Assembly (NCBI GenBank): GCA_046759485.1
Contig: JBHICF010000001.1
Span: 1-38,615, forward strand
Direction: 5' to 3'
Source of the DNA: Nitrospiraceae bacterium
Lineage (GTDB): Bacteria; Nitrospirota; Nitrospiria; Nitrospirales; Nitrospiraceae
Length of the DNA: 38,615 nt
How positions within the stretch are numbered: the first letter of the stretch is position 1; every line of letters starts with the position of its first letter. The notes beneath the pieces were generated by a model. It saw nothing but the letters and a program-made list of their open reading frames with translations. It ran no database searches and was not told the DNA's origin. The position numbers were made by a program, and so were the translations under genes. Below are positions 1-38,615 of the stretch, piece by piece.

Positions 1-233
1 GAGGTGGTGGCGTGGGACCACAGCGAGGTGGTGGCGTGGGACCACAGCAAGGTGGTGGCGAGGGGCCGCAGCGAGGTGGTGGCGTGGGACCACAGCGAGG
101 TGGTGGCGTGGGACCACAGCAAGGTGGATGCGAGGGGCCGCAGCGAGGTGGTGGCGCGGGGCCACAGCAAGGTGGTGGCGTGGAACCACAGCAAGGTGGA
201 TGCGAGGGGCCACAGCAAGGTGGATGCCGGGCC
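1..233 (+). repeat. Tandem 24-bp coding repeat, about 9.7 copies, running off the left edge of the window
   Basis: Units at 1-24, 25-48, 73-96 and 97-120 are identical (gaggtggtggcgtgggaccacagc). The other units differ at a few positions. Confidence 0.95.
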
Positions 234-687: not shown

Positions 688-968
688 GTGACCGCGCGAA
701 GTACGTGGACGTAAGCAAGCTGCGGGAACGGCTGGACGGGTTGCGGCCCAAGATGCACGGACCACCGCTCGAAGAATGGGCGACGACCAGGGACCTAGCG
801 ATCGACGAGTTCGGATCCATCATTGACGAGCTGGCCTACATGAAGGTCGATCACGACCGCATCTGGTTCCATGACGGCCGGCAGATTCCGGAGCCGTTGC
901 GGATTCTCGGCCCCCTTCCCGACCGCTTCTGCGGCTGTAGCGGCTCGCAGGCTCGGGATTCTCAATGA
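684..968 (+). CDS. Hypothetical protein (94 aa)
   Basis: GTG start has AGGAGGA 6 nt upstream. GTGA overlap with the upstream gene and ATGA overlap with the downstream gene. Confidence 0.6.
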   Translation: MSDRAKYVDVSKLRERLDGLRPKMHGPPLEEWATTRDLAIDEFGSIIDELAYMKVDHDRIWFHDGRQIPEPLRILGPLPDRFCGCSGSQARDSQ

Positions 969-2906: not shown

Positions 2907-2931
2907 GCCGGCCCCCGGAGGACCACGAACG

Positions 2932-3405
2932 ATGAGGACCTACGACCTCGACCAGCTCCGCGAGTTTGTCCGCGAGAGCGAGCGAATCGAGGGAATTCAC
3001 CGAGAGCCTCGACGGGCGCAGGTCCGGGCCCACGAGCACTTCCTGGGCCTAGGGGAACCAGACCTCCAGGACCTCTGCAACGTGGCACTGTCGCTCGAGC
3101 CTCGAGCCCGCCTTCGTGAACAGCCGGCTATGAACGTGCGGATCGCCAACCACAGACCTCCTTCCGGAGGGCCGGAGATTCCCTCGCACGCCGAATTCCT
3201 GGTTCGCCAGGTCGTTCTCAACCGCGGAACGCCCTACCGACTCCATATCGAGTATGAGACCCTCCACCCATTCATGGACGGCAACGGCCGCACGGGTCGC
3301 CTCCTGTGGGCGTGGCAGATGATTCACCACGACATTTCGCCGGGAATTGACCTCGGATTTCTCCACGCTTGGTACTACCAGGGCTTGGATTTTGGACGGG
3401 CCTAG
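2932..3405 (+). CDS. Small Fic-domain protein (157 aa), probable AMPylase/NMP-transferase
   Basis: Canonical Fic motif HPFMDGNGRTGR at 3265-3300. N-terminal SERIEG at 2977-2994 fits the (S/T)xxxE(G/N) inhibitory helix motif. Internal ATG chosen because the upstream ORF extension overlaps DUF5131 and is R/S/P-rich. Confidence 0.9.
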   Translation: MRTYDLDQLREFVRESERIEGIHREPRRAQVRAHEHFLGLGEPDLQDLCNVALSLEPRARLREQPAMNVRIANHRPPSGGPEIPSHAEFLVRQVVLNRGTPYRLHIEYETLHPFMDGNGRTGRLLWAWQMIHHDISPGIDLGFLHAWYYQGLDFGRA

Positions 3406-6176: not shown

Positions 6177-6547
6177 TACGCCTCCGTGTCGAAGCGCCCG
6201 CCAGGCGCTAGGTCGCTGCCGGCCAGGTGGTGCCTCGTACCTTGGCGTGCGCCGTGAGGTATGTGGTGCGACCCATCGACAAAGATCGCAGCCTCCTTCT
6301 CGCCAATCTGTCGAGCGTGATCTTCATAGAGAGGGTTTGCCATGTCTACATTCTCGTAAGGGGTACCCTCCCACGGATTCGCGACGTCCAGCACGACAGG
6401 CTTGCCGGCAACCCTCATGTGCGGAGCTGAAAATGCGCGCCTCATCGTTGCGCCGCACTGACAGCTCAAGCCCTGTGGCTGATCGGAAAAGGGAGCGATA
6501 TTCTCGCGCCGTTCTCGGCATTGCCGACATACAAAGAGCTGGATCAT
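6176..6547 (-). CDS. Zinc-ribbon protein (CxxC...CxC), 123 aa
   Basis: MIQLFVCRQCRE...LSCQCG. ATGA overlap with the upstream 1214-aa gene. Confidence 0.7.
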   Translation of the reverse strand: MIQLFVCRQCRERRENIAPFSDQPQGLSCQCGATMRRAFSAPHMRVAGKPVVLDVANPWEGTPYENVDMANPLYEDHARQIGEKEAAIFVDGSHHIPHGARQGTRHHLAGSDLAPGGRFDTEA

Positions 6548-9500: not shown

Positions 9501-10188
9501 ATGCACCACCAACACCCAGGAGCCCACCGAGCCCGGTCGGTACGAGAGCGGCCAAGATGCGCTCCTCTTCCGGTAAGGCGGCGGCATCGCCAAATCCCAC
9601 GATCGCACCCTCTCCGGCTCCTACCGCGAGACCTCGAGCAATATTTCGGCCCTTGGCGGTTGATCTATATAACCGTCCTGCATAGCGAGCCAAAGCCCCC
9701 CCGGGAAGCAGAGGGATTAGGTTCGAAGCACCGATAATAACGCCCGTCGCCGCCTTACGGCCGATCTCATCAAGCTCCGAGCGTTCCTCGCCCGTGTCTA
9801 GATCGATCTCGCTCGTAAATGCAGCCTTAGAGCGCAGCCACTGGTCGCGAATTTTCTTTCGCGTCCCCTTGTCTACGAAGCCGGCACGCTCGGCGAGCCC
9901 CACGAACGGGCCCACCGTGGCATCCATCAGAGCGTCCCGCGTTAGCTCGAAGGCATCGACATCACCGCCCACGTAGAGTGGCTCGCCAAGGTCATCAAGC
10001 GACTGCGGCTCCTTGCTTCTTGCCTCTGCTTCCCCAGCAAGTATCGCCGCGGAGAATTCCAGGAACTCCCTCTCCTCTTGGTCCTCTTGCAAGTGGCGCC
10101 GGGCGTCGAAGAGAAACCGCCGCTCCTCTTCGTCTTCATCACGTGGCGAGAAGGCGAAAGAAGCGGATGTCCCGAGAGGCTCGGTCAT
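6544..10188 (-). CDS. Giant internal virion / ejection protein candidate (1214 aa)
   Basis: Single long ORF. Its position matches T7 gp16-like proteins, after smaller core proteins and before the fibre. Gly-rich hydrophobic segments near the N-terminus. Confidence 0.85.
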   Translation of the reverse strand: MTEPLGTSASFAFSPRDEDEEERRFLFDARRHLQEDQEEREFLEFSAAILAGEAEARSKEPQSLDDLGEPLYVGGDVDAFELTRDALMDATVGPFVGLAERAGFVDKGTRKKIRDQWLRSKAAFTSEIDLDTGEERSELDEIGRKAATGVIIGASNLIPLLPGGALARYAGRLYRSTAKGRNIARGLAVGAGEGAIVGFGDAAALPEEERILAALVPTGLGGLLGVGGASLANRAAVRAVAQGNGPYIRDRESQPATDWIKDRASLFYQAIFDEQMPLEKAARAVGGDAGAQLEALTQRQRISRRVATNSLFVKPEIWNGSAQEFRVATLPDGSSARSLEEILRTAPDEENFLKDLDRYMAYRREIEIKGRKERALEDQAAGREFSRDDADLKITIGPEEFDREIAPFLAEMETKYGAGMGELDRVAREVRDWSHLMLRSLESAEILSNSAVERILQKNAHYVTFQRLERELETAARSRGNAVVPRKIGGGLDVENPIVPPLEAMARMAVRTSQAIDTNLVRKSLVEARLAEIGSGDPLRMGEGDARTQLLRELQSPTEGEVPIRLVERRVRKVAELTPEEKARLGDDPESAGDDMSIFRAIHKDGPGEFSVMRRGLDEEGNEVTVRELWSTNEEMLRALQAVDPEHIGPLMRTGQTAARTLRAGATGVPSFALRNVLRDQFTAAVNSKHGFVPILTPLAQFTSEFLKDGGRHWREFVRGGGLGSTQVGLDRFNIGDKLGEIAASRRAGGRVSKVLRSTLKSPLYPFQIISELSESIPRFSEFRRARIRGATVSQAAKDASEVTLNFSRGGSFGRKWNSVEAFINAELQDLDKFARNMKSHPVRTTRRALQYIAIPSMVNYFKNHDDADYQALPEWEKSLFFHVAKREDGSFFKIPRPIGALNVAFGTSIEAFARYLQARSGAGDQDAQRAFDRWKKSFVDQVPLGMIIPIDAMFRTKGRTPHRMGRRLVDSFTPTILDPAIELTTGYDAFYETQVIPQRLKQELPEFQFTPATTETARILARPFQASPLQVESLIRGYTSNIGKAALRTGDILLGSPLRTPDPQRPELQVPFIEEVQRSFFTSPSRVAEIEGAYGFRSQPVSDLFDLREEAAIAKNTLGRAETAEQKRRVLSARPEALIEPEVRKIAQRLSALRKDRQTVLDSEDLDDAEKRSQIALIDQAVATIAATAMHNFTGSLLRAKARVDSADISESE

Positions 10189-10197
10189 GCCGTTAAT

Positions 10198-11484
10198 TTA
10201 TCGTGGATGAGGAAGAAGGAGGGGACCGACGCTCATTGCCTGCTCTAGCGGTGTTCCGAGCGCATCTTCTAGCTCTGAGGAGACTTCCGGGAGAAGCTCG
10301 ACGTCCTGAGCCTCTGACTCGAATCCGCGCCCGCCGAGACCCTCGCGACGGCGCATGCCGGAAGGTGGCTCAGAGGGCTCTAAAAGGCTCTCGATCACGT
10401 TCGAGGTGATATCGCCCAGGGAGACTTCGCGCTCGCTTTGCAGGATAAGCTCTCGGGGCGTTGGCCGACCGAGCTGCGTGTTGAACTCCTCGAGCGCAAT
10501 CTCCAGATTTGGACTTGCGCTCAGGACATTGACAAGACTCTGTCGTACTCGGTCGACGTTGCGACCATCGGGGGTGACCCTGGCGACGGCAGATGAAACG
10601 ATCGCGGACTCCCCCTGAGTCAACGCCGCCGGACTAACCGTACCGCTATCCCCCACAGGTGGGCGAGGCGCGCCGTCGGACGGCTGCAGCTCGAGCCCGA
10701 ATTGAGACAGGGCCACGTCCTGCACGCTGCCTATTTGCTGGTTAATCCCACGCAGGCTCTGTGCCGCGCGATCTCGTTCGTCCTGCGGCAACGTGAGATC
10801 GAATGCCGTTTCCCGGAAACCATCGGCGCGTGACTGCAGGACGTCGAGCACCTGCCGAGCATTATCGAAGAATCGATCCCGCGCAGTATCCCTGGCCGTT
10901 GGATCGTCACGCGCCGACTCCGTCTCGGCCCTGAGCCTTTCGGTACGGGCACGCGTCTCCTCGAGATCGACCTCCGTCTCCTCACGCTCACGTTCGCCTC
11001 GAATACGTTCAAGCTCCAACCCTCGGCGACGGATGAACTTCCGTCGGCCCTCGCCCGGTAGGCGATCTGCCGCCGGCTGTGCGAGCTGACTTTCCTCTGT
11101 ACGCAGGCTCGCCAGGCCACGGCGCACTTCCTGGCGACGTTCTCGGCGACGGTCAGCGTCGCCCGCGACCTCGAGCGCTTCGATTCGCCCCCTTTGAGAT
11201 GTCGTCAATTGACGTTTGAGGTTCTCCAACTCCGCCGCATTCTTAGTTCTGAACCTCTTTGGCTCCTGGGCCAGGATGCTCGCCGCCTCAAAGGTGCTAT
11301 TGCGGTCTTCGAGACTACGTCGGCGACTCTCCTCACGCGCTTCCGCCCGCTCCGAGATGGCCTCCTCCTCCTGCAGGAGGGCGAGTCGATGCTCGCGCTC
11401 TAATCGTTGATGAAGCTCTAACTCTTGCTGCCGGGTGAACTGATCCGCGGCACCACCGAGGAAGGAGAAGAGGGCATCCGTCAC
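10198..11484 (-). CDS. E/R-rich coiled-coil internal-virion-like protein (428 aa)
   Basis: ATGA overlap with the upstream gene. Highly charged, helical-looking sequence. Confidence 0.8.
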   Translation of the reverse strand: MTDALFSFLGGAADQFTRQQELELHQRLEREHRLALLQEEEAISERAEAREESRRRSLEDRNSTFEAASILAQEPKRFRTKNAAELENLKRQLTTSQRGRIEALEVAGDADRRRERRQEVRRGLASLRTEESQLAQPAADRLPGEGRRKFIRRRGLELERIRGEREREETEVDLEETRARTERLRAETESARDDPTARDTARDRFFDNARQVLDVLQSRADGFRETAFDLTLPQDERDRAAQSLRGINQQIGSVQDVALSQFGLELQPSDGAPRPPVGDSGTVSPAALTQGESAIVSSAVARVTPDGRNVDRVRQSLVNVLSASPNLEIALEEFNTQLGRPTPRELILQSEREVSLGDITSNVIESLLEPSEPPSGMRRREGLGGRGFESEAQDVELLPEVSSELEDALGTPLEQAMSVGPLLLPHPR

Positions 11485-19428: not shown

Positions 19429-19870
19429 AAGAAATTATGCGGAAGGGGTGCTGGGCAGGGTTGTGCCGGCGTTTTCAACGAGGTCGCGCGAGAGACTCTC
19501 GAGCTGCGATCCGCGACTTATCGAACTGTTCGAGCGAGTTGTACAGGGGTGGGACTGTACGATTCTAGAGGGCCACCGCGGCGAGGAAGCACAAAACGAG
19601 GCGGAGAGAACGGGCCGATCGACACTGCGCTGGCCAGAAGGCAAGCATAATAGAAGGCCGTCACGCGCGGTTGACGCCGCTCCGTACCCTATCGACTGGA
19701 GCGACATGGATCGCTGGCGAGCGTTCGGAGGATTCGTGCTCGGCGTCGCCGAGATGATGGATATCCCGATTCGATGGGGAGGTGACTGGGATGGAGATCG
19801 TACATTTCGCGATCAAAACTTTAATGATCTCTCCCACTTTGAGCTGAGCGAAGCGCGAAGTATCAGGTGA
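19409..19870 (+). CDS. Peptidase M15 (VanY / L-Ala-D-Glu peptidase-like) endolysin candidate
   Basis: EGHRG...SRAVDAAP...RWGGDW...DLSHFEL (H-D-H zinc ligand pattern). The exact start is uncertain (GTG 19409, 19415 or 19421). Confidence 0.8.
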
Positions 19871-21011
19871 CCCCGTTGGTGAAGCGGTGATGCGTCCTCT
19901 CCTGGACACGAAAGAACCCTACCTCGCCGCGGAACTCGTCCTTTCGCCCATCGCGGTCGTTAACCTGGATGTTCGTGACGAGCCGATTGTCGCGATTCCG
20001 CATGAAGCGGTATCCGACGTTCGCCGGATCGACCGCGTAGGCATGGCCTCTGTAGATCGCCCCGTCGAAAAGGTCGTGACTCATGATGCGCAATCGACCA
20101 TGCGGCGTAACGAGTCGCGTAATGTCCATGCCAAGCGTCTTGTCCTTCGGCATCAGCTCGAGCTGCGCGTGCGCGTCGGCTGAAATGTTGGCAACGATCC
20201 CCCGCGAAGCAAAAAAGAGCTTGTCCTTTGCCCCGTAACGGAATGTCTTCTCCGAGACCCCGTAGAACGAGATCATGTCAAACGTGCCGCCGAGATCCGT
20301 ATCGTTCGTTACGATGAACGGATCGAGGCCGCCCGTCGAGCGACGCGGCTCGTTGCCCGTCAGGTCCTCGAACGCCTGGCCCCAGAAGAACGAGGACTCG
20401 ATCCGCACAAGCTGATCGATTCCGCCCTTCTTCTGCTGCCACGGCAACTCCTTCGAGCCGTAGAGATCCGACTCCATCAGCGTGTTCGTCACCGCGAAGG
20501 GCCAGCGCTGAATCTGCGTAAAGTTGATCTGAACGGTCTTTTTCGTGGTGATCGACTCTTCGGATAGCGCGCCCTCCTCGGCGGCCCCGCCGAGACTCGA
20601 GATGGTGTCGCCATCGGACATCGCGGCGGCGGTGGTACCACCCCACCCGCGCTCGACCGTAAGGTCGTTGCCTACCTTTGAAACAATTCGACAGACCTCG
20701 TCCGTCTGCTGGTTGCGCCAGAGGACATTCGGGTGCCAATAGCCCCCGTTATCAACGGTGATGGTCGTCGTGACTCCATCCGCAACAGCGCCATCCAGCG
20801 TGTCGCGCTCGGGAACGCGCTCATCCTCGAGTGCCTTGAACTCGGGGTTAAACACGGACCGACGGTTGATCATTGCGCTCATCACCGTCAGCGGCGCCGC
20901 TGACGGCTCAAGCAAGAAGATATCGCGGTGCATGTCGATGACGCGCGACTCTTGCTGTACGCCGCGCGTTGCCGCCGTGGCCCGCTGGCCGGCGATAGTC
21001 GGAACGGTCAT
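19863..21011 (-). CDS. Major capsid protein candidate (382 aa)
   Basis: Follows the scaffold-like gene. AGGAGG lies 10 nt upstream of the ATG. Size fits an HK97-fold capsid protein. Confidence 0.8.
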   Translation of the reverse strand: MTVPTIAGQRATAATRGVQQESRVIDMHRDIFLLEPSAAPLTVMSAMINRRSVFNPEFKALEDERVPERDTLDGAVADGVTTTITVDNGGYWHPNVLWRNQQTDEVCRIVSKVGNDLTVERGWGGTTAAAMSDGDTISSLGGAAEEGALSEESITTKKTVQINFTQIQRWPFAVTNTLMESDLYGSKELPWQQKKGGIDQLVRIESSFFWGQAFEDLTGNEPRRSTGGLDPFIVTNDTDLGGTFDMISFYGVSEKTFRYGAKDKLFFASRGIVANISADAHAQLELMPKDKTLGMDITRLVTPHGRLRIMSHDLFDGAIYRGHAYAVDPANVGYRFMRNRDNRLVTNIQVNDRDGRKDEFRGEVGFFRVQERTHHRFTNGVT

Positions 21012-22461: not shown

Positions 22462-24327
22462 TCAGTTCACCCCACCAAGCTGGTCGCCAAGCTCCGCCGC
22501 GATGGCCTGCCCTTGCGTTTCGGTGCCACTCCCGGGTGTGGCCCCAATCGCTTGAGACTGCTCGGCTTGAGCCTGCGCGGCTAGCGACTGTCGCGCGGAG
22601 TCGCCAAGAATTAATGCCTCTGGATTAGGGGAGAGCTTCGTGCCGCGCGCGTAGTCGATAAACGTCGCCGACATCAATGGATGATCGAGCGGCAATCTGA
22701 GCTGCGCGAGGACGGCCAGGAAGCGCTCAGTTCGCTGAAGGCGCTGAGCGGCCGTTAGCGGCTCGTTACGTGCAAGGTCGATCGTTGCGTCCATATCCAT
22801 GCCCGATCCGGAGACCAGGTCATGGGGATCGACCTTGTGAAATGACTCTCCGGTAAAGGCATCTCCGGCTAGCCGAATGAAACGCTCTTCATCGATGAAG
22901 AGCTCATTAACCCGCATGAGCTGACGCGCTAAATCTCCTAAGAACTGCCAGCCCAGCACCTGAATCATCAATCCAGCCTTCGACCCGGACGCCTCCGCGA
23001 GAACGCTCGCTTCGGTCGCGGTACCACCTCCGGCCGCCAGACCAGAAAACGTATCAGTCGAGCCGGCCTTCTGTGCCCATCGGTCAATCTCCTGACTTTC
23101 CCGGTAGACCGAGAAATCGATCGGATCACGTCGCAACGGCGCGATCGAATTGTGATTGCGTACCCACACGACGCCATTCGGGCTATAGCGAAGATCGTGC
23201 GGATTCACACCCGAGTTCCGAATGACCGTATACATTTGATGAACGGCATACAGCAGGTTGTCCATCCTGGACTCGTGGAGCGTTTGTAGCTCGACCTGCA
23301 TCGAGTAGAGAACTTCGGCGGGCGAGATGCCGTAGATCGAATGAAGGGAAGGGATCGGAGTGAATTCAAGGATTGGCAGGTGCCCAAACGGATTACCGGC
23401 ATTGCGAATCGGCTTCAGCCTAGGATGCTCACGTACGACCGTCACGACACGGTCCCACGTCCACATCTCGAGCAGCGTAACCTCGCGCTTGGTCTGGTCC
23501 GCGGGCAAATTCGACATGCCGTCGAACGTATTGCGCGCGTGCTCCTCGACGGTCTCGGCATTCCCTTCGAACGGCTGTTTCGTATTGCTGTCCTTGACCA
23601 GCTCCTCAAGCTCGCCGAGATTCTTGTATAGCGGCTCACCTTCCAGGCGTGCCGCCTTGAGATCGTCCAGAGTGGCGCTCGTTTCGTGGACGACCCACTG
23701 GCATGGCTTCTCCCCAGTGAAAGAAAGGCTCTTTCCGTCCGGATCAGGGAAGACCTCATCGATATTCAGGACCTCGCACCAAGGATCGTTCCAGATCACC
23801 GAGTCCTCCCACGAAAATCGACTCCGTGTACCCAGGCCAACGTTGAGCCCAAACATGGAGAGACCGAGCCGTCGAGAGCTGCGCACAAGGCGGCGCTGCA
23901 CCGACTTACGGTGCGTCACCTTCATAAACCCCGTACCGTAAATCTCCGCCGATTTGATCATCAGTAGCAGCTTCATCTGCAGCTTCAGCGCCTGCCAGTC
24001 GTATTCGAGAAGGTAGCGATGATGGTTCGCGCGACGTGAATCCCTCTCGCCACCACGGCCCCAGGTTTCGATGACGGGCGTGTTCGCAACCCGAGCAAGG
24101 AAATCCTCCACGGTCGTGAAGATCAGAGGGATCCCGAGGCTCGAAGTTAGAGAGTCCTCGGGGACTTCCATGGCTGTTCTGTAACCGTCGTAGAGGTCTT
24201 TCCATTTATCGCGGTTTTGATCGACCAGCTCGCGCCGTGAGCGCTCGTAGCGATGGAGCACGGACGAAACGGCATCGTCCGCAGCAAGCTCCTTGCCCGG
24301 AACAACGTACAGGCTTGGATTCGGCAC
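22462..24327 (-). CDS. Portal (head-tail connector) protein, 621 aa
   Basis: Immediately downstream of TerL. Size and N-terminal pattern (RYERSR...W..LY.GY) are podovirus-connector-like. Confidence 0.8.
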   Translation of the reverse strand: MPNPSLYVVPGKELAADDAVSSVLHRYERSRRELVDQNRDKWKDLYDGYRTAMEVPEDSLTSSLGIPLIFTTVEDFLARVANTPVIETWGRGGERDSRRANHHRYLLEYDWQALKLQMKLLLMIKSAEIYGTGFMKVTHRKSVQRRLVRSSRRLGLSMFGLNVGLGTRSRFSWEDSVIWNDPWCEVLNIDEVFPDPDGKSLSFTGEKPCQWVVHETSATLDDLKAARLEGEPLYKNLGELEELVKDSNTKQPFEGNAETVEEHARNTFDGMSNLPADQTKREVTLLEMWTWDRVVTVVREHPRLKPIRNAGNPFGHLPILEFTPIPSLHSIYGISPAEVLYSMQVELQTLHESRMDNLLYAVHQMYTVIRNSGVNPHDLRYSPNGVVWVRNHNSIAPLRRDPIDFSVYRESQEIDRWAQKAGSTDTFSGLAAGGGTATEASVLAEASGSKAGLMIQVLGWQFLGDLARQLMRVNELFIDEERFIRLAGDAFTGESFHKVDPHDLVSGSGMDMDATIDLARNEPLTAAQRLQRTERFLAVLAQLRLPLDHPLMSATFIDYARGTKLSPNPEALILGDSARQSLAAQAQAEQSQAIGATPGSGTETQGQAIAAELGDQLGGVN

Positions 24328-24341
24328 GCCCGAAGCTTACC

Positions 24342-25907
24342 TTAATGCGCTCGTCGGCCCATGACGACGCCACCCATGCGACGGTGCGCTGCCGTTCCTT
24401 GACGCCGCATCGCACGCGCTCGGGCATTCTGCATGCCGTAGCGCGTAATATCGTCGTCACGCATCGGGCTCGGCTCGTGAACGGAGTCGACGTGGCAGGG
24501 GTTCATCATGATCAGGTAACGCAGGGCGTCGCAGAGGTCGTCATCCTTCTTGAACGGCCTCTCAGGGGCGACCTGGTCCTTGTAGCGAGTCCGTGCCCAC
24601 TGGTACGAAGAGAGGGCCGAGATCAGCCGTGGGCAATTTCTGGAGATGAACAACTTCGGACGTTCGGTATTTGGACGCAGCGTGGCTCGAAGATAGCTTG
24701 ATACCGACGCGATGCCCGGCAGGACATCCGTATTCGCCAAGTTCGTGAAGACGCCATTCTCAGCATAGAGGTCTTGAATTGTTCGCTCGTCGCCTGGGTC
24801 GGAGTCGTTGCGTACCCGGCGCCTCGAGTCGTGCGAGATCGCCGTATCGGCGATTCGGTCCTGCCCCGAGAGGCGTCGAATCGACTTCGCGTGATCGTCG
24901 TGCACGGTCGAAGGTGCTCCGTGATACTCGCGATATACCCAAAGGTCGTTCTTGCGATTGGCACGTGCCCATAAGCACGCGGTTGGGTGCCGAAACCCGA
25001 TATCGATGGCCGAATAGGTCGTGCCGGTCGGAACAGGATGACTCGCAGGATTAAAGACATGTCCGCCGACGTGCGGCTCGTTCCAGTCGACGTAATCGGG
25101 GGAGAAATCTGGCCAGATCAGGCCCTCGAACTCCTCGAAGCTCGCCTCGTACTCGCGCCGAAAGATGTCCTCGGGAATCTCAGTCTTCTTCGATCGTAGC
25201 CAGTCCCGGTCGACGTAGGGATTCTCTTCCGTACGGCAACGGATACCGGCCCACCCCTTGCCCTTCGTCTCCTCTTCGAGGCGACGGTCAAAGTAGCGCT
25301 TGAACCAGCCACCCCCTCGGGGGGTCGAGATAAACAAGACGCGCCCATGACGGTCAATCGTGCACGGTTCGAGGTATTCCGTCCAAATGTCCTCGGCCAA
25401 GAATGCGCACTCATCAACGACAATAAGGTCAAGCTGCTCTCCCTTAAGTGAGGTTGGGGACTCGGCCGACTTACCGACGATGATGGCGCCGTCACACGTA
25501 CGGATGAAGCGGTTGTCCCGGGTCCAATTGGACTTCTCGATCGATCCGGGTCCGAGCACCTCCTCGATAACCAGCGCCTGCCAGACGATTTGCCATACAC
25601 GATCCGTGGTTTCATACTGAGGTCCAACGATCCATGTACGAGTTTTTGGAAATGATGCCGTATAGATGACCTCCCCGGCTGCGGCAATGGTCTTGCCGCA
25701 GCGCCGGCCCCACGGTGCGGCAAAGTAAATCCACTCCGGGCCGAAATGAAGCGCCGTCTGTCCCGGATGACGATTGACCCCGGCGAGGTAGGGGCGTACG
25801 TCGCCCGGGCGTATCTCCACCTTCCAGTTCGTGAAGATAAACGCCTTCCACTCACGGAGCTGCTCGGGCGTGCCGTAATAAGAAAGGTGCTCCGAGTGAC
25901 CCCTCAT
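24342..25907 (-). CDS. terL: Terminase large subunit
   Basis: Walker A-like GRRCGKT and Walker B-like LIVVDECAF. 521 aa, directly upstream of the portal gene. Confidence 0.9.
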   Translation of the reverse strand: MRGHSEHLSYYGTPEQLREWKAFIFTNWKVEIRPGDVRPYLAGVNRHPGQTALHFGPEWIYFAAPWGRRCGKTIAAAGEVIYTASFPKTRTWIVGPQYETTDRVWQIVWQALVIEEVLGPGSIEKSNWTRDNRFIRTCDGAIIVGKSAESPTSLKGEQLDLIVVDECAFLAEDIWTEYLEPCTIDRHGRVLFISTPRGGGWFKRYFDRRLEEETKGKGWAGIRCRTEENPYVDRDWLRSKKTEIPEDIFRREYEASFEEFEGLIWPDFSPDYVDWNEPHVGGHVFNPASHPVPTGTTYSAIDIGFRHPTACLWARANRKNDLWVYREYHGAPSTVHDDHAKSIRRLSGQDRIADTAISHDSRRRVRNDSDPGDERTIQDLYAENGVFTNLANTDVLPGIASVSSYLRATLRPNTERPKLFISRNCPRLISALSSYQWARTRYKDQVAPERPFKKDDDLCDALRYLIMMNPCHVDSVHEPSPMRDDDITRYGMQNARARAMRRQGTAAHRRMGGVVMGRRAH

Positions 25908-29456: not shown

Positions 29457-30107
29457 CTATTGAATCGCCCATCCGATAACGCCCTCTATCCCCCCGTCAC
29501 TCGAGAATCGCACTCGGTAGCCTACTCGGTCGGCCCTTGGTATGTGCATTCGCAAATCTACAACGGTAGCTTCGGCAATTGCCCCGAACGGACCGTCTCG
29601 CGCGCCCGCATAATGAAGTACCGTCGTCTGTATGGCCGACCGGTCCGCCCACCGTAATCCGAGGAGTAGACTTTTGCCCTGCCGGCTCCAGCCGGGCATT
29701 GTGAAGCCGCCCGGGTGCGTTCCCGCACCCGTTTCGTAGCGACTAACGCGCATTCCGAGCAGGCCGCGCAGTCTTTCTCGGCCGATGACAATCGATGCTT
29801 CTGAATGCCCTCGGCGCGTGTTGCCGTGGAATCTCCACTGACGCCACCGCTTATCGCCTCGCAAGTAGAGGTTGACCCAACCCTCGACACCGATCCATGA
29901 AGTTGCCTCACAGAGGCCCATGACATGAATGCCGTACGCGCTTCTAAATGTATCCCCCGTACGAGCGACGAGCCCGAGGACCCCGGAGCACCTCGCTTCG
30001 GAGGCCGAAGCCCAGAGGAAGAGCGCAAGGGCGCACCCCCGGCTAAGGTCCCGCCTTGACCTGTGGGCCACCGGTCGTCCCGCTTGATCCCCCACGCGGT
30101 ACGTCAC
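29457..30107 (-). CDS. Possible secreted protein (signal-like RRDLSRGCALALFLWASASEA), 216 aa
   Basis: ORF track only. GTG start with a weak RBS. Overlaps the 3' end of the 61-aa ORF. Confidence 0.35.
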   Translation of the reverse strand: MTYRVGDQAGRPVAHRSRRDLSRGCALALFLWASASEARCSGVLGLVARTGDTFRSAYGIHVMGLCEATSWIGVEGWVNLYLRGDKRWRQWRFHGNTRRGHSEASIVIGRERLRGLLGMRVSRYETGAGTHPGGFTMPGWSRQGKSLLLGLRWADRSAIQTTVLHYAGARDGPFGAIAEATVVDLRMHIPRADRVGYRVRFSSDGGIEGVIGWAIQ

Positions 30108-30228
30108 TTTCGTCTGGCCACGGGTGCGCTTCGCTCCGTTTGTCGACCTCGCGCAACGACTTGATGCCTCGCGTAAGTGACTCTACCTCCCTGATGAGCA
30201 GGTCGTAGATCAGGTCACGGTCCGACAT
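30043..30228 (-). CDS. Hypothetical 61-aa protein, first gene of the minus-strand block
   Basis: ATG 30228 has AAGGAGG 5 nt upstream. Confidence 0.5.
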   Translation of the reverse strand: MSDRDLIYDLLIREVESLTRGIKSLREVDKRSEAHPWPDESDVPRGGSSGTTGGPQVKAGP

Positions 30229-30333
30229 CGGCACCTCCTTCTTCTTATTGCGCTTGTCCTCGGACGGATTGCGGAGCCAGCGCCCCTTGTTCCATCCCAA
30301 TGTGTACTCTTCGCTCGTCGTGGTCCGTACGGT

Positions 30334-30350
30334 ACACGTGATCCACGTGT
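30334..30350. promoter_or_regulatory. 7-3-7 palindrome ACACGTG-ATC-CACGTGT next to a minus-strand TTGACA (30353-30348)
   Basis: Read directly. Lies between the tRNA-like gene and the first late ORF. Confidence 0.3.
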
Positions 30351-30424
30351 CAACGCAAGTGCGCACAAGAAGAGGTAGTGGCGTCGTGTTACTGTTCGCT
30401 CGTGGCCACGGGTCCCTGGATGGG

Positions 30425-30533
30425 AGACCACGACGAGATTCGAACTCGCGTCACCAGTGGAAGCCTAAACAACGTCCCTTGGTGAAGACTCCCCTTGCAG
30501 GGGGGGCACCTTAGACCACTCGGTCACGCCGCC
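30425..30533 (-). tRNA. Aberrant class-II tRNA-like gene (~109 nt), Ser(GCU)-like layout. The anticodon loop is one nt short and the variable region is ~40 nt.
   Basis: Minus-strand read: GGCGGCG-TG-ACC-GAGTGGTCTAA-GGT-G-CCCCC(C)CTGCAAGGGG(AG)...GCGAG-TTCGAAT-CTCGT-CGTGGTC-T. D and T arms are canonical. The acceptor pairs 6/7, with 2 G-U pairs and 1 G-G mismatch. Confidence 0.45.
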
Positions 30534-30561
30534 TTCAGGGATTTACCCAAAAAGTCCCGAC

Positions 30562-30609
30562 TAGACCCTCTCGCCGCAGCTTTAGCGGGTTGAAGCGCGA
30601 GAGGGTCTA
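30562..30609. repeat. Perfect 13-bp stem hairpin (TAGACCCTCTCGC / GCGAGAGGGTCTA), 22-nt loop
   Basis: Arms at 30562-30574 and 30597-30609. Confidence 0.9.
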
Positions 30610-30631
30610 ACCCTAATGGGTTGTTTGTCGC

Positions 30632-30657
30632 CTCTGCCTACGCCGGGCTAGGCAGAG
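30632..30657. repeat. Perfect 9-bp stem hairpin (CTCTGCCTA / TAGGCAGAG), 8-nt loop
   Basis: Arms at 30632-30640 and 30649-30657. Confidence 0.9.
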
Positions 30658-30783
30658 ACTCGAATGCTCTCATCGGCATCCTCCTCATCCACGTCGTGAT
30701 TGGCCCACACGTAGCGGGCCGGAGACGCCACTACCCAAAGAAGATGTCCCCTACGACACCGACCGTGCTAGGATATGGACTAC

Positions 30784-30809
30784 GACCGTCCGTAAGAGTC
30801 CGGACGGTC
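30784..30809. repeat. Perfect 9-bp stem hairpin (GACCGTCCG / CGGACGGTC), 8-nt loop
   Basis: Arms at 30784-30792 and 30801-30809. Confidence 0.9.
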
Positions 30810-30812
30810 TTG

Positions 30813-30865
30813 GGGGCGACCAGGGCCGTTGCCGGGCAGGTACGGACTCTCGCCCTGGTCGCCCC
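30813..30865. repeat. Perfect 14-bp stem hairpin (GGGGCGACCAGGGC / GCCCTGGTCGCCCC), 25-nt loop
   Basis: Arms at 30813-30826 and 30852-30865. Confidence 0.9.
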
Positions 30866-30931
30866 ACTTCGAGGTGGGCCTCACACAAGTTGCATAGCCC
30901 CGGGACTTACGTCTAAAATAGCAAGAGATAT

Positions 30932-30972
30932 GCGATGTGAGGGAGAGCCTAAGGACAGCCGGCTCACATCGC
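30932..30972. repeat. Perfect 10-bp stem hairpin (GCGATGTGAG / CTCACATCGC), 21-nt loop
   Basis: Arms at 30932-30941 and 30963-30972. Confidence 0.9.
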
Positions 30973-31122
30973 CCATACATCGTCCACCGGCGGGGCTGCC
31001 CACAAGACGAACGTGCTCACGCACGATGGACCTACTGCTAGTGCTCTGACGGGTCCGGGCTCTTCAAAGGAACAGGGCTAGCGAACGACGGCCGGCGACC
31101 GACGGGCAACCTCAGTCGCACC

Positions 31123-31193
31123 GAGCTGGTTCGAGCTGCAGTCCACTTCGTCGCATCGGCGGGGGCTGGGACTGCTGCGCCTCGAACCAGCTC
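31123..31193. repeat. Compound hairpin: 13-bp outer stem (GAGCTGGTTCGAG / CTCGAACCAGCTC) plus 7-bp inner stem (GCAGTCC / GGACTGC)
   Basis: Outer arms at 31123-31135 and 31181-31193. Inner arms at 31138-31144 and 31169-31175. Confidence 0.9.
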
Positions 31194-31209
31194 CCTCTAA
31201 GCAAAGCTC

Positions 31210-31562
31210 TGTACATATGTACATGTACTCGTACACTCGTACATGTACACACCACATGTAGGGGGGAGATGGGTGTATGTACTGTACGACGTACGGCGTA
31301 CGGGCACGGGTCCCTCGTGCGGGGGGTGGGGGGGGTGTACGTGCGTGTTCATGTACACGAACACTCGTACGTGCGCTCGTGTGTACATGAACACGCACGT
31401 ACACGAGCATGGGTGGCGTACATGGACCTACTCGTCGTACACGTTCTCGTCCGTCGTTCGCGTCCGTTGTACAGTCCGAGCACCGTCAGCTCGAGCTGTA
31501 CGATCGCACGAGACGGGACGTGTACGTGGGGGGGTCATACGAGAGTGAAATGCACGCCGTAC
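31210..31562. repeat. GTAC-saturated iteron-like array (TGTACA, ATGTACAT, CGTACG palindromes), including two tandem 30-bp units and G6/G6TG8/G7 runs
   Basis: About 21 GTAC by hand count in ~350 bp. Units 31335-31364 and 31365-31394 match at 21/30 positions (GTACGTGCG...TGTACAYGAACAC). Confidence 0.9.
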
Positions 31563-31627
31563 ACACGAGGGGGCGCTCACGGGCGTTGTCGACCGAGAGC
31601 GACCTGGTGAAAAACCTCAGAAATGTA

Positions 31628-31657
31628 TTGACAGTGTGTTGTCAGGTGTGGTAGAAC
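31628..31657 (+). promoter_or_regulatory. Candidate early promoter: TTGACA (31628-31633), TG-extended weak -10 TAGAAC (31652-31657), overlapped by TGACA-N7-TGTCA inverted repeat
   Basis: Read directly. About 45 nt upstream of the first early ATG (31702). The -10 is poor. Confidence 0.3.
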
Positions 31658-31701
31658 TGCGGCTGCCCTATTAACCATACACGGGAGAACAGCACACACC
31701 A

Positions 31702-32569: not shown

Positions 32570-33190
32570 ATGAGCCAGAAGCACGTTGATCGACTCCTGA
32601 GATCCGTGCCCGAATGGAACTCCTGGCGCCAGGAGAATCCCAGGGTCATACCGGACCTCACCAATGCAAACCTCGCCGGAGCAAACCTCACCAATGCAAA
32701 CCTCGCCGGAGCAAACATCGCCGATGCAAACATCGCCGATGCAACCCTCGCCAGAGCGGACCTCGCCGGAGCAACCCTCGCCAGAGCGTACCTCGCCGGA
32801 GCGTACCTCGCCAGAGCGGACCTCGCCAGAGCAAACCTCACCGATGCAAACCTCGCCGGAGCAAACCTCGCCGGAGCGGACCTCGCCAGAGCGGACCTCG
32901 CCGGAGCGAACCTCACCAGAGCGTACCTCGCCGATGTCCGGGGAATCATCGCCGCGCCCATAGCCGACCCCCGCGGACACACAGCGTTTTTCTGGAAGAA
33001 GCGCCAAGGGTCGTGGTGGGTCAACTCTGGATGTCGCTCCACGACCATCGCCCAGGCACGGAAACACTGGGGTGAGTACTACCTTTCTAGGGCCACCGCG
33101 GATATGACTAGCCGGGAAATCGGCGACCAATACCTCCGAGCGTTCGACTGGCTGGAGAAGCTACTGGCGGCGAGGGCCCTGAACGACTGA
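32570..33190 (+). CDS. Pentapeptide-repeat protein paralog 1 (206 aa): N-cap, ~19 A(D/N)LxG-type units, conserved C-terminal domain
   Basis: [24 protein letters not shown], then ANLAG/ADLAR units at about 32654-32935, then DPRGHTAFFW..WWVNSGCRS..ARKHWG. Confidence 0.9.
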   Translation: MSQKHVDRLLRSVPEWNSWRQENPRVIPDLTNANLAGANLTNANLAGANIADANIADATLARADLAGATLARAYLAGAYLARADLARANLTDANLAGANLAGADLARADLAGANLTRAYLADVRGIIAAPIADPRGHTAFFWKKRQGSWWVNSGCRSTTIAQARKHWGEYYLSRATADMTSREIGDQYLRAFDWLEKLLAARALND

Positions 33191-33615
33191 TGACGAACCG
33201 AACTCCGAAATACGACCGCAGACGCGAAATGCTCGCCGCACTAGCATTCGCCGTACTCGTCGCCGCCCTATTGCTGATCTGGATGCTATTCACGACGCCA
33301 CCGGCCTATCCCGAAGCCTGCACTACGAACATGCCCGACGATGCTCGCCGTACCCTCCACATGCGGCACGATTCGCTCATAGAACATGCTCAGCGCTGGG
33401 CCGAGGCACGAGCATGCGCCCTCTCACTACCCTACCCGATCCGGCGTGTCGGACGACAGACTTGGCGAGGTTACTACCCAGCCGAAACAACCGGCACCTT
33501 CCACCGTCGCTACTTGCGCTACCTCGCCGAACGTGAGCGCTGCTATACCGGACGCGGACTGATACCCCCAGGCTCACCGACGAGCGAGCTACGGATCAGG
33601 GTCGTACGACGATGA
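33190..33615 (+). CDS. N-terminally membrane-anchored protein (141 aa)
   Basis: TGATG overlap with paralog 1. TM segment MLAALAFAVLVAALLLIWMLF. Confidence 0.7.
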   Translation: MTNRTPKYDRRREMLAALAFAVLVAALLLIWMLFTTPPAYPEACTTNMPDDARRTLHMRHDSLIEHAQRWAEARACALSLPYPIRRVGRQTWRGYYPAETTGTFHRRYLRYLAERERCYTGRGLIPPGSPTSELRIRVVRR

Positions 33616-35422: not shown

Positions 35423-35468
35423 GTATTGACGGAACGTTGCCAAAGAACAGAGCAGAAAGGTGAGACAC

Positions 35469-36209
35469 ATGAACTTGATGGAACTTTGGAGGGCTGTCCG
35501 CGATGCCGAAATCAAAAAGGGCGCACAAGCGCAGCTCTCCGCGACGGTAATTCAGTCCGACGGCATGAAGCAATTCCGCGGCCGCGACTACCTGCAACTA
35601 CGCATCAACGACGGCTCCCTGAAATACCCTATCGCGATGCGGATTTACGGCGGGATGATCCAGTACGAAATTCCCATCGGTGCGCAGATCCTGGCCCATG
35701 TCCAGGTCGACGTATACGGTGACGCTCCCAGCATCTGCCCGATGACCCGGATGCAGCACATGTCCGTCAACGGACAACCGATGCCGGACACGGGCTATCC
35801 GACCGATCTCGTCCAGGTCGGACAGGGGCAGGGCTCCATCGCGCCCGGCACGATCGATATACCGAATGTCGCTTCATCGGCCTCCTCCGTACAGGGTCAA
35901 CTCGCACCTCCACAGGACGCACGAGACCGCCGACTTACGGCGTGGGACATGGTCCAGCGGCAGGAGGCGTTGCTCGCGTACTGGTCAGCACGTAACGGCG
36001 AGAAACTCAACGATGGGGCAGTCATGGCAGCGGTTAATGCCGTCCTCATCGCTATTAACAGCGGATCAGTAAGCGACAATGTGATGAACGTCCCGCTCTC
36101 ACTCGAGGGTCGACCAGGCGCTCCCAGCTACCCACCGGCACAAAGCCCGCAAGAGCCAGCGCCGAGCGTCGAGCGGATCGCGGTGGACGACGACGACATC
36201 CCGTTCTGA
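35469..36209 (+). CDS. ssb: Single-stranded DNA-binding protein with divergent OB region and canonical acidic tip
   Basis: C-terminus ...VDDDDIPF is an SSB hallmark, preceded by a P/Q/G-rich linker. AGAAAGG RBS lies upstream of ATG 35469. GTG 35460 is an alternative start. Confidence 0.8.
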   Translation: MNLMELWRAVRDAEIKKGAQAQLSATVIQSDGMKQFRGRDYLQLRINDGSLKYPIAMRIYGGMIQYEIPIGAQILAHVQVDVYGDAPSICPMTRMQHMSVNGQPMPDTGYPTDLVQVGQGQGSIAPGTIDIPNVASSASSVQGQLAPPQDARDRRLTAWDMVQRQEALLAYWSARNGEKLNDGAVMAAVNAVLIAINSGSVSDNVMNVPLSLEGRPGAPSYPPAQSPQEPAPSVERIAVDDDDIPF

Positions 36210-36246: not shown

Positions 36247-36519
36247 ATGACGAGCTTTTGCGCACCGAACCGATTCTCCCTCACGATTGAAAGCGACAAT
36301 GTCGTGGTCGTGCGCTCCTATGTAAAGGGTACGCGGGGGACCGCATCGCGTCGGGTATTTCAAACCGAGAGCGAGGTTGACTCCATGGCACGGGCAATGT
36401 CATACATCCTCAACGTACGTGGCTTCGATCCGAGCGCGGCAGGCGAACAGCCCGCCGACGATCGCGAGGATGGCGGCCCGCCGTACGAACCGGACGAACG
36501 AACGACGCCTGGCCGATGA
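36247..36519 (+). CDS. Hypothetical protein (90 aa)
   Basis: ORF track. AAAGGAGA upstream. Confidence 0.5.
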   Translation: MTSFCAPNRFSLTIESDNVVVVRSYVKGTRGTASRRVFQTESEVDSMARAMSYILNVRGFDPSAAGEQPADDREDGGPPYEPDERTTPGR

Positions 36520-36610
36520 GCACCGCAATCGCCGCCGCCGACGTCGTGCTCTGGCGCCATCTCGAGCGCAGCGGCCAGCGAGTCGCACAGCTCGGGGAGG
36601 GATGGATCGG

Positions 36611-37480
36611 ATGAGTGTGGTTGAGCAGCAGATAGCGCCGCCATCTCGCCCCGCTCTGAGGTACTTCGGTGGCAAGTGGCGCATTGCGCCCTGGATCATC
36701 TCGTTCTTCCCAGAGCACATCTGCTACGTCGAACCGTTCATGGGTGCCGGTTCCGTCCTACTGCGGAAGCCTCCAAGCACCTTCGAGTACCTCAACGACA
36801 AGGACGATGCAGTCGTCAACTTCTTCCAGGTCCTCCGCGACCACAAGGATGAGCTTCTCAGGCAGATCCGACAGACCCCCTTCGCGAGACGGGAGTTGGA
36901 GTTGTCGTACTCGAGCACATCGACCGATCCCATTGAGCGGGCACGGTTGGTCTACGTCAGGTGTTGGCAGGGGAGATCGGGCTCACGTCTTCACAAGACC
37001 GGTTGGCGCAACCAGATACGCCCCTCCCGCAACAAGACCGCCCTGCGCGGTTTCATCGACGACTCGCATCTCGATGTAGTCGCGGCCCGTCTGCGAGAGG
37101 TCGGTCTCGAGTGCGGCGACTATCAGAGGGTGATCGAGCGATACGACGCACCCACCACGCTCTTCTATGCCGATCCGCCATACCTGGGCAGCCTCCGGAG
37201 CACGATCGGCTACCGATTCGATCTGAAGCAGGAAGAAGAACATCGGAACCTCGCGGAAGTGTTCCGTGAAGTGGCGGGCATGGTCGTTCTGAGCGGCTAT
37301 CAATCGAGCCTCTACGCGGAGCTCTTCGAGGAGCACGGATGGGCTCGGCGGGATCGCAAGGCACGAATGCAGTCCGGCGAGGCTGTCGAGTCGGTGTGGC
37401 TCAACCCGAACACTCTCTCCGCACACACTCAGCTCGACCTATTTCGACACACGGAGCCACCGAACGGAGAAACCGAATGA
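36611..37480 (+). CDS. D12-class (Dam-like) N6-adenine DNA methyltransferase
   Basis: LRYFGGKWRIAPWI, EPFMGAGSV and DPPY motifs. GGGGAGGGA upstream. ATG 36602 is an alternative start. Confidence 0.9.
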   Translation: MSVVEQQIAPPSRPALRYFGGKWRIAPWIISFFPEHICYVEPFMGAGSVLLRKPPSTFEYLNDKDDAVVNFFQVLRDHKDELLRQIRQTPFARRELELSYSSTSTDPIERARLVYVRCWQGRSGSRLHKTGWRNQIRPSRNKTALRGFIDDSHLDVVAARLREVGLECGDYQRVIERYDAPTTLFYADPPYLGSLRSTIGYRFDLKQEEEHRNLAEVFREVAGMVVLSGYQSSLYAELFEEHGWARRDRKARMQSGEAVESVWLNPNTLSAHTQLDLFRHTEPPNGETE

Positions 37481-37593
37481 CCGAACCCCGAGACTCTCTG
37501 CCCGATCTCCGCCTCATCTGGGAGGACGGATTCCGGGCCGGCGTGAAGGCCGCCAGGCGGGCGCTCGACCGAGCCATCGAGGCGTGCCCATGA
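37477..37593 (+). CDS. Small ORF (38 aa) bridging the methyltransferase and paralog 2
   Basis: ATGA overlaps at both ends. Confidence 0.4.
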   Translation: MTEPRDSLPDLRLIWEDGFRAGVKAARRALDRAIEACP

Positions 37594-38357
37594 GCCAGGA
37601 GCACGTTGATCGACTCCTGAGATCCGTGCCCGGATGGAACTCCTGGCGACAGGAGAACCCGAATGTTGTGCCAGACCTCGCCGGCGCCGACCTCAGGTAT
37701 GCCGACCTCAGGGACGCCAACCTCAGGGACGCCAACCTCAGGCACGCCAAACTCATCAGCGCCAACCTCAGGCACGCCAACCTCACCGGCGCCGACCTCA
37801 AGTATGCCAACCTCAGATATGCCAACCTCAGATACGCCAACCTCACCGGCGCCTGCCTCGCCGCCACCAACCTCAGATACGCCAATCTCAGGCACGCCAA
37901 ACTCATCAGCGCCAACCTCAGGCACGCCCGTTTCAACTCATCCAACCTCACCGGCGCCAAACTCAGATACGCCGATCTCAGGTATGCCGACCTCAGGCGC
38001 GCCTGCCTCACCGCCGCCAACATCAGGGACGCCGATCTCAGGGATGCCGACCTCAGGGACGCCGAACTCTGGGGCGCCGAACTTACCGGCGTCACGGGGA
38101 TTCTCGACGCTCGCGTAGATGATCCCCGTGGGTATCGAGCGTTTTTCTGGCAGCAGCGAGGGGGCGAGTGGTGGATCAACTCCGGATGCCGTTCCATGAC
38201 TGTGGAGAAGGCACGAGAACACTGGGGGGGCGAATGTTACGTGTCGTCGACACCGTTGCCCGGTGACTGTACCGACAGGGAGATCGCAGATCGGTACCTG
38301 GAGGCCTTGGTTTGGCTGGAGGAGCTAACGAATGAGATGCAGGAGGCGCAGGCATGA
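37590..38357 (+). CDS. Pentapeptide-repeat protein paralog 2 (255 aa, ~27 units) with the same N-cap and C-terminal domain as paralog 1
   Basis: [34 protein letters not shown] units at about 37674-38087, then [25 protein letters not shown]. Confidence 0.9.
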
Positions 38358-38615
38358 ACCAAGAGCACGTTGATCGACTCCTGAGATCCGTGCCCGGATG
38401 GAACTCCTGGCGACAGGAGAACCCGAATGTTGTGCCAGACCTCGCCGGCGCCGAACTCAGGCGCGCCAACCTCACCGACGCCAACCTCACCGGCGCCGAC
38501 CTCAGGGGCGCCAACCTCACCGACGCCAACCTCACCGACGCCGACCTCACCGGCGCCGAACTCAGGGGCGCCAACCTCACCGACGCCAACCTCACCGACG
38601 CCGACCTCACCGGCG
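38354..38615 (+). CDS. Pentapeptide-repeat protein paralog 3, 3'-truncated by the window end
   Basis: ATGA overlap with paralog 2. Hand translation: [60 protein letters not shown]... Open to base 38615. Confidence 0.85.

Follow-up and report, generated by a model that had tools for sequence, protein, structure and literature searches.

Three pentapeptide-repeat paralogs in a probable phage early operon

The 38,615-nucleotide stretch analysed here (positions 1 to 38,615 of contig JBHICF010000001.1, Nitrospiraceae bacterium assembly GCA_046759485.1; hereafter the window) is a fragment of a tailed-phage genome that carries three pentapeptide-repeat genes on its plus strand. The genes were first picked out by a prediction made from the sequence without database searches, and all three open reading frames (ORFs) are present as it described. 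Copy 1 (32570-33190) is an ORF translating to 206 amino acids (aa) and copy 2 (37590-38357) encodes 255 aa, while 87 aa of copy 3 (38354-38615) are visible before the window edge ends it. Each passes the Pfam pentapeptide model PF00805, with E-values of 2.5e-21, 8.6e-51 and 5.7e-22 for copies 1 to 3 and scores of 75.3, 169.5 and 77.4 bits against a gathering cut-off of 20.2.

The three proteins share a single architecture. They begin with a common N-terminal cap (N-cap; 32570-32659, 37590-37679 and 38354-38443) of the form M(S/N)Q(K/E)[10 protein letters not shown](E/G)WNSWRQENP, in which 24 of the first 30 positions are invariant, so that the predicted shared cap is borne out. The cap is followed by pentapeptide units in register: 18 in copy 1 (32660-32932), 27 in copy 2 (37680-38087) and at least 11 acidic units plus a partial one in copy 3 (from 38444). 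The earlier counts were about 19, about 27 and at least 12. At the nucleotide level, Tandem Repeats Finder reports 17.9, 26.3 and 11.9 copies of a 15-nucleotide (nt) period in copies 1, 2 and 3, and the copy 2 repeats include duplications with a 60-nt period, which corresponds to one coil of the solenoid. In the two complete proteins the repeats give way to a C-terminal domain (32933-33187 in copy 1, with the stop codon at 33188-33190, and 38088-38354 in copy 2). It is common to both, as had been proposed, with 56% identity over 79 aa (E 1e-31).

Sequence matches of copy 2 to the Protein Data Bank (PDB), which comprise designed and natural pentapeptide solenoids, reach an E-value of 1.8e-43 and end at residue 169, where the repeats end; the closest natural proteins of solved structure are the cyanobacterial HetL and Np275/276. 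A single-sequence AlphaFold2 model of full-length copy 2 shows strands with 5- and 20-residue periodicity, at a low-reliability mean predicted local distance difference test (pLDDT) of 55.7. A PADLOC search for defence genes gave only two sub-threshold matches, both to the repeat region of copy 2 (DrmC, E 0.0015; Cas6, E 0.0073).

The 5' ends of the three genes (32570-32674, 37590-37694 and 38354-38458) are 92-97% identical over their first 60 nt, and those of copies 2 and 3 are 97% identical over the first 105 nt, whereas the C-terminal domains of copies 1 and 2 share just 63% of their DNA sequence. Near-identical 5' ends beside diverged C-terminal domains suggest that the paralogs have undergone gene conversion or that their 5' ends are constrained in nucleotide sequence.

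The window stops within copy 3, inside a 97%-identical tandem repeat of 60-nt period (38464-38615). This is probably an assembly break in the copy 3 repeats, and the repeat numbers of all three genes may be sensitive to assembly. A look-up of the window's proteins gave no record that would carry the contig beyond copy 3.

The C-terminal domain defines a family of phage proteins

The original prediction did not recognise the C-terminal domain, and neither do the databases. No Pfam, NCBIfam or PHROG match was found for the window proteins, for the isolated domains at E-values up to 10 or for 60 family members taken individually. The Pfam check that the prediction had proposed accordingly returned no known family with a mundane role, and the family profile found no PDB sequence (best E 0.68). 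A word-index search with a single C-terminal domain retrieved no relatives, but an exhaustive profile search did. When 1.84 billion cluster representatives were searched with a profile made solely from the domains of copies 1 and 2, 131 of them were recovered at E <= 1e-3 and 7 at E <= 1e-10; copy 1 is itself identical to one such representative, P0001. A hidden Markov model (HMM) of the family returns copies 1 and 2 at E-values of 1.1e-27 and 4.1e-28.

Almost all members are 90-240 aa long and carry the domain, of about 75-85 aa, at the extreme C-terminus. Its consensus is LPVxDPRGYxxxAVxxxxxWxIxAGCRxFTxxEARxHWGxxYxGDRxIGDxYLxAlDWLE, and the motifs DPRG(Y/H), GCR, HWG, (G/A)DxYL and WLE are all present in the aligned copies 1 and 2. 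In an alignment of 60 members the invariant residues are D, R and one W, with G, Y, A, W, G, C, A, H, G, Y, G and Y nearly invariant. In copies 1 and 2 the domain sits at the C-terminal end behind a pentapeptide solenoid; the N-terminal parts of other members hold 0-24 pentapeptide units, usually a few to about 24 and sometimes degenerate. In P0008, P0013, P0045, L017 and L029 (P numbers denote proteins and L numbers genomic loci) an ARVxG-type solenoid takes the place of the pentapeptides, which brings to at least three (pentapeptide, ARVxG-type and degenerate) the kinds of solenoid that the domain is paired with. The caps vary too: of 143 members, 4 have the WNxWRxENP type seen in the window and 27 an H..WL type. 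On this profile and motif evidence, the C-terminal domain marks a genuine family of phage proteins that had no annotation before.

AlphaFold2, given a 60-sequence alignment, models the copy 2 domain with a mean pLDDT of 94 and a predicted template modelling score (pTM) of 0.84, values at which the domain is predicted to be an autonomous fold. The modelled order of elements is alpha/beta: one strand and then three more lead into a short helix with HWG at its end, and a loop connects this to a long C-terminal helix. A Foldseek search of this model against the PDB gave no significant neighbour (best E 0.87, template modelling (TM) score 0.29). The best matches in the viral BFVD library are uncultured Caudovirales proteins labelled "pentapeptide repeat" (E 5e-4 to 1e-2, TM about 0.6, 20-26% identity), followed by weaker matches to further solenoid-containing phage proteins. 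A tblastn hit of the copy 2 domain to the Mycobacterium phage MiaZeal "RNA ligase" (E 0.2) lies outside the annotated frame and is lost in protein comparison, and we regard it as spurious.

The conservation pattern would suit a compact cap or an oligomerisation module. The invariant D and R, together with the near-invariant C and H, may leave room for a specific docking or ligand site.

Repeat number and charge vary between copies

Near-identical phages represented by loci L002 (gene at 10001-10420) and L004 (8001-8480) encode family proteins, P0011 and P0133, whose sole difference is an insertion or deletion of 20 aa, that is, four units or one coil. Repeat length and outward-facing residues change quickly; comparison of the sequences shows the solenoid to be fast-evolving.

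The original prediction raised the possibility that the solenoids mimic the charge of DNA. We compared net charges computed from the sequence of the N-cap and repeat part, a measure that is not a surface map. This part of copy 1 has a net charge of 0 (whole-protein isoelectric point (pI) 9.4; units mostly AN/DLAG/R) and that of copy 2 a charge of +7 (pI 9.8; units AD/NLR(Y/D/H)); only the partial copy 3, at -7 over 87 aa with units A(N/D/E)L(T/R)(D/G), is acidic as mimicry would require. The N-terminal parts of the family have a median charge of -2.4 per 100 aa. With two non-acidic copies and a family this weakly charged, generic DNA mimicry is unlikely: a uniform B-DNA-like electronegative surface does not appear to be a family property, and mimicry would be possible at most for copy 3.

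Relatives lie in early, replication or recombination modules

We fetched 77 loci, 61 of which contain the domain; these fall into 44 non-redundant groups, 26 of them with at least 1.5 kb of downstream sequence. All contexts examined are phage-like, and the family gene lies in their early, replication or recombination part. In L002 and L004 a gene for a Cro-like helix-turn-helix (HTH) protein is followed by three small genes, the family gene and a YqaJ exonuclease gene, with SSB, MT-A70 methylase and DnaB genes farther on. L006 has a divergent CI/Cro HTH pair, then three small genes and the family gene, and in L010 and L031 the family gene lies a few genes past an HTH regulator. In L008 it is followed by a 50-aa ORF, ERF, SSB and Dam; in L018 and L035 it adjoins the YqaJ exonuclease gene; and in L009 it lies near a Prim-Pol gene, DUF2800 and a gene for an Enc34-type single-strand DNA-binding protein. 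An ERF, YqaJ exonuclease or SSB gene occurs within 4 kb downstream on the same strand in 6 of the 26 non-redundant groups, the ERF and YqaJ calls having been confirmed by Pfam on representative neighbours. Relatives being found in phage early and replication-recombination modules, an early, host-directed role is plausible.

A tblastn search with the family consensus found the domain in a single GenBank phage record, the uncultured phage MW202444 (L011), where the gene sits between an integrase/CopG region and repA. Scans with degenerate DNA patterns gave hits on 7 IMG/VR contigs and 45 metagenome contigs, and four true hits on contigs of metagenome-assembled genomes: two Planctomycetota, one Alphaproteobacteria and one unclassified. 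The other 7 of 11 pattern hits on species-representative genome contigs were chance matches. None of the four true hits is an isolate genome, among 185,579 species-representative genomes scanned with a strict pattern that recovers the family in part.

The set of three genes does not stand alone as a system: the family marked by their C-terminal domain has at least 131 representatives and is usually single-copy. Only four loci are multi-copy: the window itself and the tandem pairs in L017, L050 and L067. The L017 pair (854-1809, minus strand) joins one copy with an ARVYG-type solenoid to another with a short pentapeptide solenoid. The window, with three, has the largest copy number seen per phage, and its paralogs are grouped with a Dam methyltransferase and an SSB-tail protein on the strand opposite the structural genes.

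A precedent in Vibrio phage 24 and P22-like phages

The prediction knew of no characterised phage system built on such proteins, but an example exists. The pentapeptide-repeat gene 24_60 of Vibrio phage 24 is needed against the RexAB-like defence system Sucellos: its deletion is reported to sensitise the phage, and escape mutants carry Y112R and changes at N110/N115 (bioRxiv 10.1101/2024.07.02.601686). In GenBank the gene (SBVc24_0060; KJ572844, 12900-13322) lies in the replication module, after two genes for DNA methyltransferases and one that is TetR-like, and its position after methyltransferase genes resembles that of window copies 2 and 3. When we aligned the repeat register on the GenBank sequence, the mutated residues fell on positions of an ANLYGAN unit that face outward; the residue numbers in the publication refer to a corrected assembly whose repeat count differs.

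The product, gp60, is a clear homologue of Orf232 from the P22-like phages ST64T and L and the only protein in this comparison with functional data. In these phages orf232 lies in the early-left operon between ral and gene 17, and the L and ST64T versions differ by one 15-bp unit (PMC8022706). Among Salmonella and Cronobacter prophages we found hundreds of near-identical Orf232 homologues (P0144-P0263), which differ mainly in unit number, in length steps of 5 aa. Many are labelled 'partial', and with repeat number varying among these records we take the assemblies to break in the repeats.

Orf232 and gp60 resemble the window proteins in having an N-terminal helix cap, a variable number of pentapeptide units and a C-terminal alpha/beta domain of about 70 aa, with the same predicted order of elements and a local motif, (V/I)xAGC(R/Q)xxT(I/V)xE, in common. 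Repeat number varies among near-identical phages in both groups. Their cap is of the H..W(L/I) type found in 27 of the 143 family members, whereas the window copies carry WNxWRxENP, and they lack the DPRGY, HWG and GDxYL motifs. The HMM match between the two groups is weak (7.9 bits over 21 residues), and tblastn with the family consensus did not retrieve the Orf232 and gp60 phages. We treat the resemblance as a possible distant relationship or a convergent design, and not as family membership.

Layout of the window

The predicted phage origin of the window is confirmed by its structural genes, which lie on the minus strand and have PHROG matches: the large terminase subunit (24342-25907), a portal or adaptor protein (22462-24327) and the major head protein (19863-21011). 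The terminase is less than 30% identical to that of every GenBank phage, and megablast with 8.6 kb of the window found no DNA-level relative among GenBank phages. G+C content is about 0.57-0.64 throughout. A 1213-aa protein encoded among the structural genes (6544-10188, minus strand; best match phrog_9854, E 1.7e-44) has as its best matches very large PHROG families without known function, and may be an internal virion or ejection protein.

From 31702 onward the genes are on the plus strand. Ahead of them about 1.6 kb (30100-31700) holds no database-supported ORF. Within this gene-poor stretch, GTACA(T/C)G-type direct repeats form a cluster at 31200-31410, roughly 300 nt ahead of the first rightward gene, that includes a perfect inverted repeat of 24 nt (31335-31358 and 31381-31404). 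Situated between the divergent structural and early blocks, the cluster is a candidate for an operator or an origin. Rfam gave no match for it, and tRNA, promoter and terminator scans returned nothing informative.

Directly upstream of a small linker ORF and copy 2 lies the methyltransferase gene that the prediction had named, a D12-class N6-adenine DNA methyltransferase of Dam type (36377-37480, plus strand; PF02086, E 3.5e-25; phrog_56, E 1.6e-64), whose true start is probably an internal ATG. The linker (37477-37593, plus strand) encodes 38 aa and overlaps its neighbours through ATGA at both ends; a longer version of 84 aa had no database match in Pfam and PHROG scans. ATGA overlaps occur at the methyltransferase/linker (37477), linker/copy 2 (37590) and copy 2/copy 3 (38354) junctions, and through this chain copies 2 and 3 are translationally coupled to the methyltransferase. 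The proposed ATGA coupling does not extend to copy 1, where the junction after the gene is TGATG (33188-33192). Copy 2 has an additional in-frame GTG at 37584, but alignment of the paralogs supports the ATG at 37590, which we take as the start.

The same operon encodes a 249-aa protein (35460-36209, plus strand) whose translation ends in DDDDIPF, the motif at the C-terminal tip of bacterial SSB proteins. It has no Pfam, PHROG or PDB sequence match; to judge from the motif, it could be a phage SSB that has diverged or a protein that mimics the SSB tail.

At the other end of the window, an ORF open on the left (1-687, plus strand) encodes a fourth solenoid-type repeat protein, with about nine octapeptide units reading VVAWDHS(E/K) or VVARGRSE, followed by a DUF7666 domain (E 5.4e-6). 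Such DUF7666 solenoid-repeat phage proteins share the design of short tandem repeats with a small C-terminal globular domain, although this one differs from the paralogs in its octapeptide repeat and unrelated C-terminal domain. Downstream of it are a DUF1353 gene (965-1888), a DUF5131 gene (1845-2906) and a Fic-domain ORF (2563-3405).

Discussion

We suggest, with a probability of about 40%, that the three genes encode early phage proteins that act as non-enzymatic, stoichiometric binders and block host DNA-handling or defence proteins. We infer that the window proteins would be expressed early in infection and would work by occupying or blocking such partners. The right-handed pentapeptide beta-helix would provide a tunable recognition surface, and the C-terminal domain would cap the helix and serve as an oligomerisation or docking module, a working analogy being the C-terminal element of Qnr and MfpA, which mediates dimerisation (PMC10886550). 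With neutral, basic and acidic surfaces, the three copies would therefore address different partners. Our candidate targets, in order of preference, are the end-processing nuclease-helicases RecBCD/AddAB, inhibited in a Gam-like manner, to which gene position in a subset of relatives points; RexAB-like or restriction-type defences, by analogy to gp60; and gyrase, by analogy to Qnr and MfpA. The proposal also resembles Ocr and ArdA, which are likewise early, non-enzymatic, elongated decoys of mobile elements; these are, however, strongly acidic and helical, and among the window copies just the partial copy 3 is acidic. In one reported test of the pentapeptide proteins McbG and QnrB, neither inhibited BREX (PMC7261183).

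Several observations weigh against this proposal. Beyond ERF, YqaJ and SSB in a subset of loci, no neighbour family recurs and no conserved partner gene was found. The link to recombination genes is limited to about a quarter of loci, and early operons hold such genes in any case. Generic DNA mimicry is made unlikely by the non-acidic copies 1 and 2 and the weak charge of the family. The comparison with Orf232 and gp60 stays below significance in hhalign (probability 15.6% in local mode; 34% in greedy mode, colinear over 72 columns). Finally, most near-invariant residues of the C-terminal domain are G, W, Y, P or A, which a purely structural cap would explain equally well.

The likeliest rival, still rather improbable, is a narrower form of the same proposal in which the proteins specifically inhibit RecBCD/AddAB and so protect linear phage DNA as well as recombination by the ERF/YqaJ of the phage itself. 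Directly downstream of the family gene are ERF and/or YqaJ and SSB in L002/L004, L008, L015, L018/L020, L035, L036, L059 and L060/L071, and a protein of the window operon has a DDDDIPF tail of the SSB type. In lambda, gam precedes bet-exo, the same position that the family gene takes before annealase and exonuclease genes. The RecBCD inhibitors lambda Gam, P22 Abc1/Abc2 and T7 gp5.9 are small early proteins beside recombination genes, but the window's relatives are so placed in only 6 of 26 loci, and Pfam and PHROG scans found no recognisable annealase or exonuclease in the window. Gam, Abc2 and gp5.9 show no sequence or fold similarity to the window proteins in Pfam, PHROG or PDB Foldseek comparisons. 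Gam and gp5.9 act as DNA mimics, and copies 1 and 2 are non-acidic. Next in likelihood, and improbable in our judgement, is that the proteins are accessory factors of the phage's own replication or recombination, for example scaffolds for its SSB or annealase. Their consistent placement within replication-recombination modules, their coupling to neighbours and the conservation of the C-terminal domain in phages of distant hosts would all agree with such a role. It would, however, lead one to expect a co-occurring neighbour family, which the loci do not consistently offer; hypervariable repeat number and charge would be unusual for a housekeeping cofactor; and a genome with three divergent copies speaks for several targets.

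Ranked after these, and unlikely in turn, is action on host gyrase in the manner of Qnr and MfpA, shielding it from toxins or poisons set free during infection or throttling host replication. Every pentapeptide-repeat protein with an established biochemical target acts on gyrase (PMC10886550), Qnr, MfpA, AlbG and McbG share with the window proteins a pentapeptide beta-helix and a C-terminal element past the repeats, and there is weak similarity to the NCBIfam Qnr and MfpA models and to the QnrB1 and MfpA structures. Yet copy 2 scores 58.3 bits against penta_rpt_Qnr (cut-off 240) and 42 against mfpA (cut-off 360), copy 1 scores lower, and the matches are confined to the repeats; the closest natural structures are HetL and Np275/276, not Qnr. 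The C-terminal domain is larger than the dimerisation helix of Qnr/MfpA and unlike it, and Qnr-type genes are chromosomal or plasmid resistance genes, whereas the window genes are phage-borne and copies 1 and 2 non-electronegative. A defence or superinfection-exclusion function for the lysogen, with the solenoid sensing incoming phage proteins, seems very unlikely. Several relatives do lie in temperate phages near repressor or integrase genes, and some defence proteins, Hailong among them, contain pentapeptide repeats (PMC13586616). The window proteins nevertheless have no effector domain and no PADLOC match above threshold, the genes run in the direction of the lytic early genes, after Cro-like genes and not in moron positions, and Pfam and PHROG scans of the 38.6-kb window show no integrase or repressor. 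Least likely of all, we think, is an active C-terminal domain, binding a small ligand or nucleotide signal or acting as an enzyme, with the solenoid a mere spacer. The invariant D, R and W and near-invariant Y, C and H of the 60 aligned members, and the combination of the domain with at least three solenoid types, are what such an activity would lead one to expect; against it, a domain of about 75 residues has no match to a catalytic or binding fold and no conserved metal-ligand set, and its most conserved residues resemble core or turn residues.

Returning to stoichiometric binders of host proteins, a bolder version can be framed, which we consider doubtful. The C-terminal domain would be a new fold that docks a solenoid of tunable length and variable surface onto a conserved host hub (such as RecBCD/AddAB or the binders of the SSB tail), constituting a new modular class of inhibitor. 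The neutral, basic and acidic copies would together make up a counter-defence array with multiple targets, and repeat slippage and gene conversion would have diversified it.

Since phage early proteins with pentapeptide repeats are already known, one with anti-defence activity, the window does not represent a new kind of system. What is new here is moderately novel: an undescribed domain family, a confident model without a solved relative, and a phage with three copies differing in charge. New anti-defence and host-takeover proteins come mainly from phage early genes without known function, and this family offers a sequence signature, a confident domain model, about 130 diverse members and natural variants that differ by whole coils. 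It could join the annotation tools for anti-defence genes, which now give such proteins only the label "pentapeptide repeat" or no name. If the proteins do act as inhibitors, their solenoid would offer a naturally tunable scaffold with which DNA-handling enzymes could be blocked.

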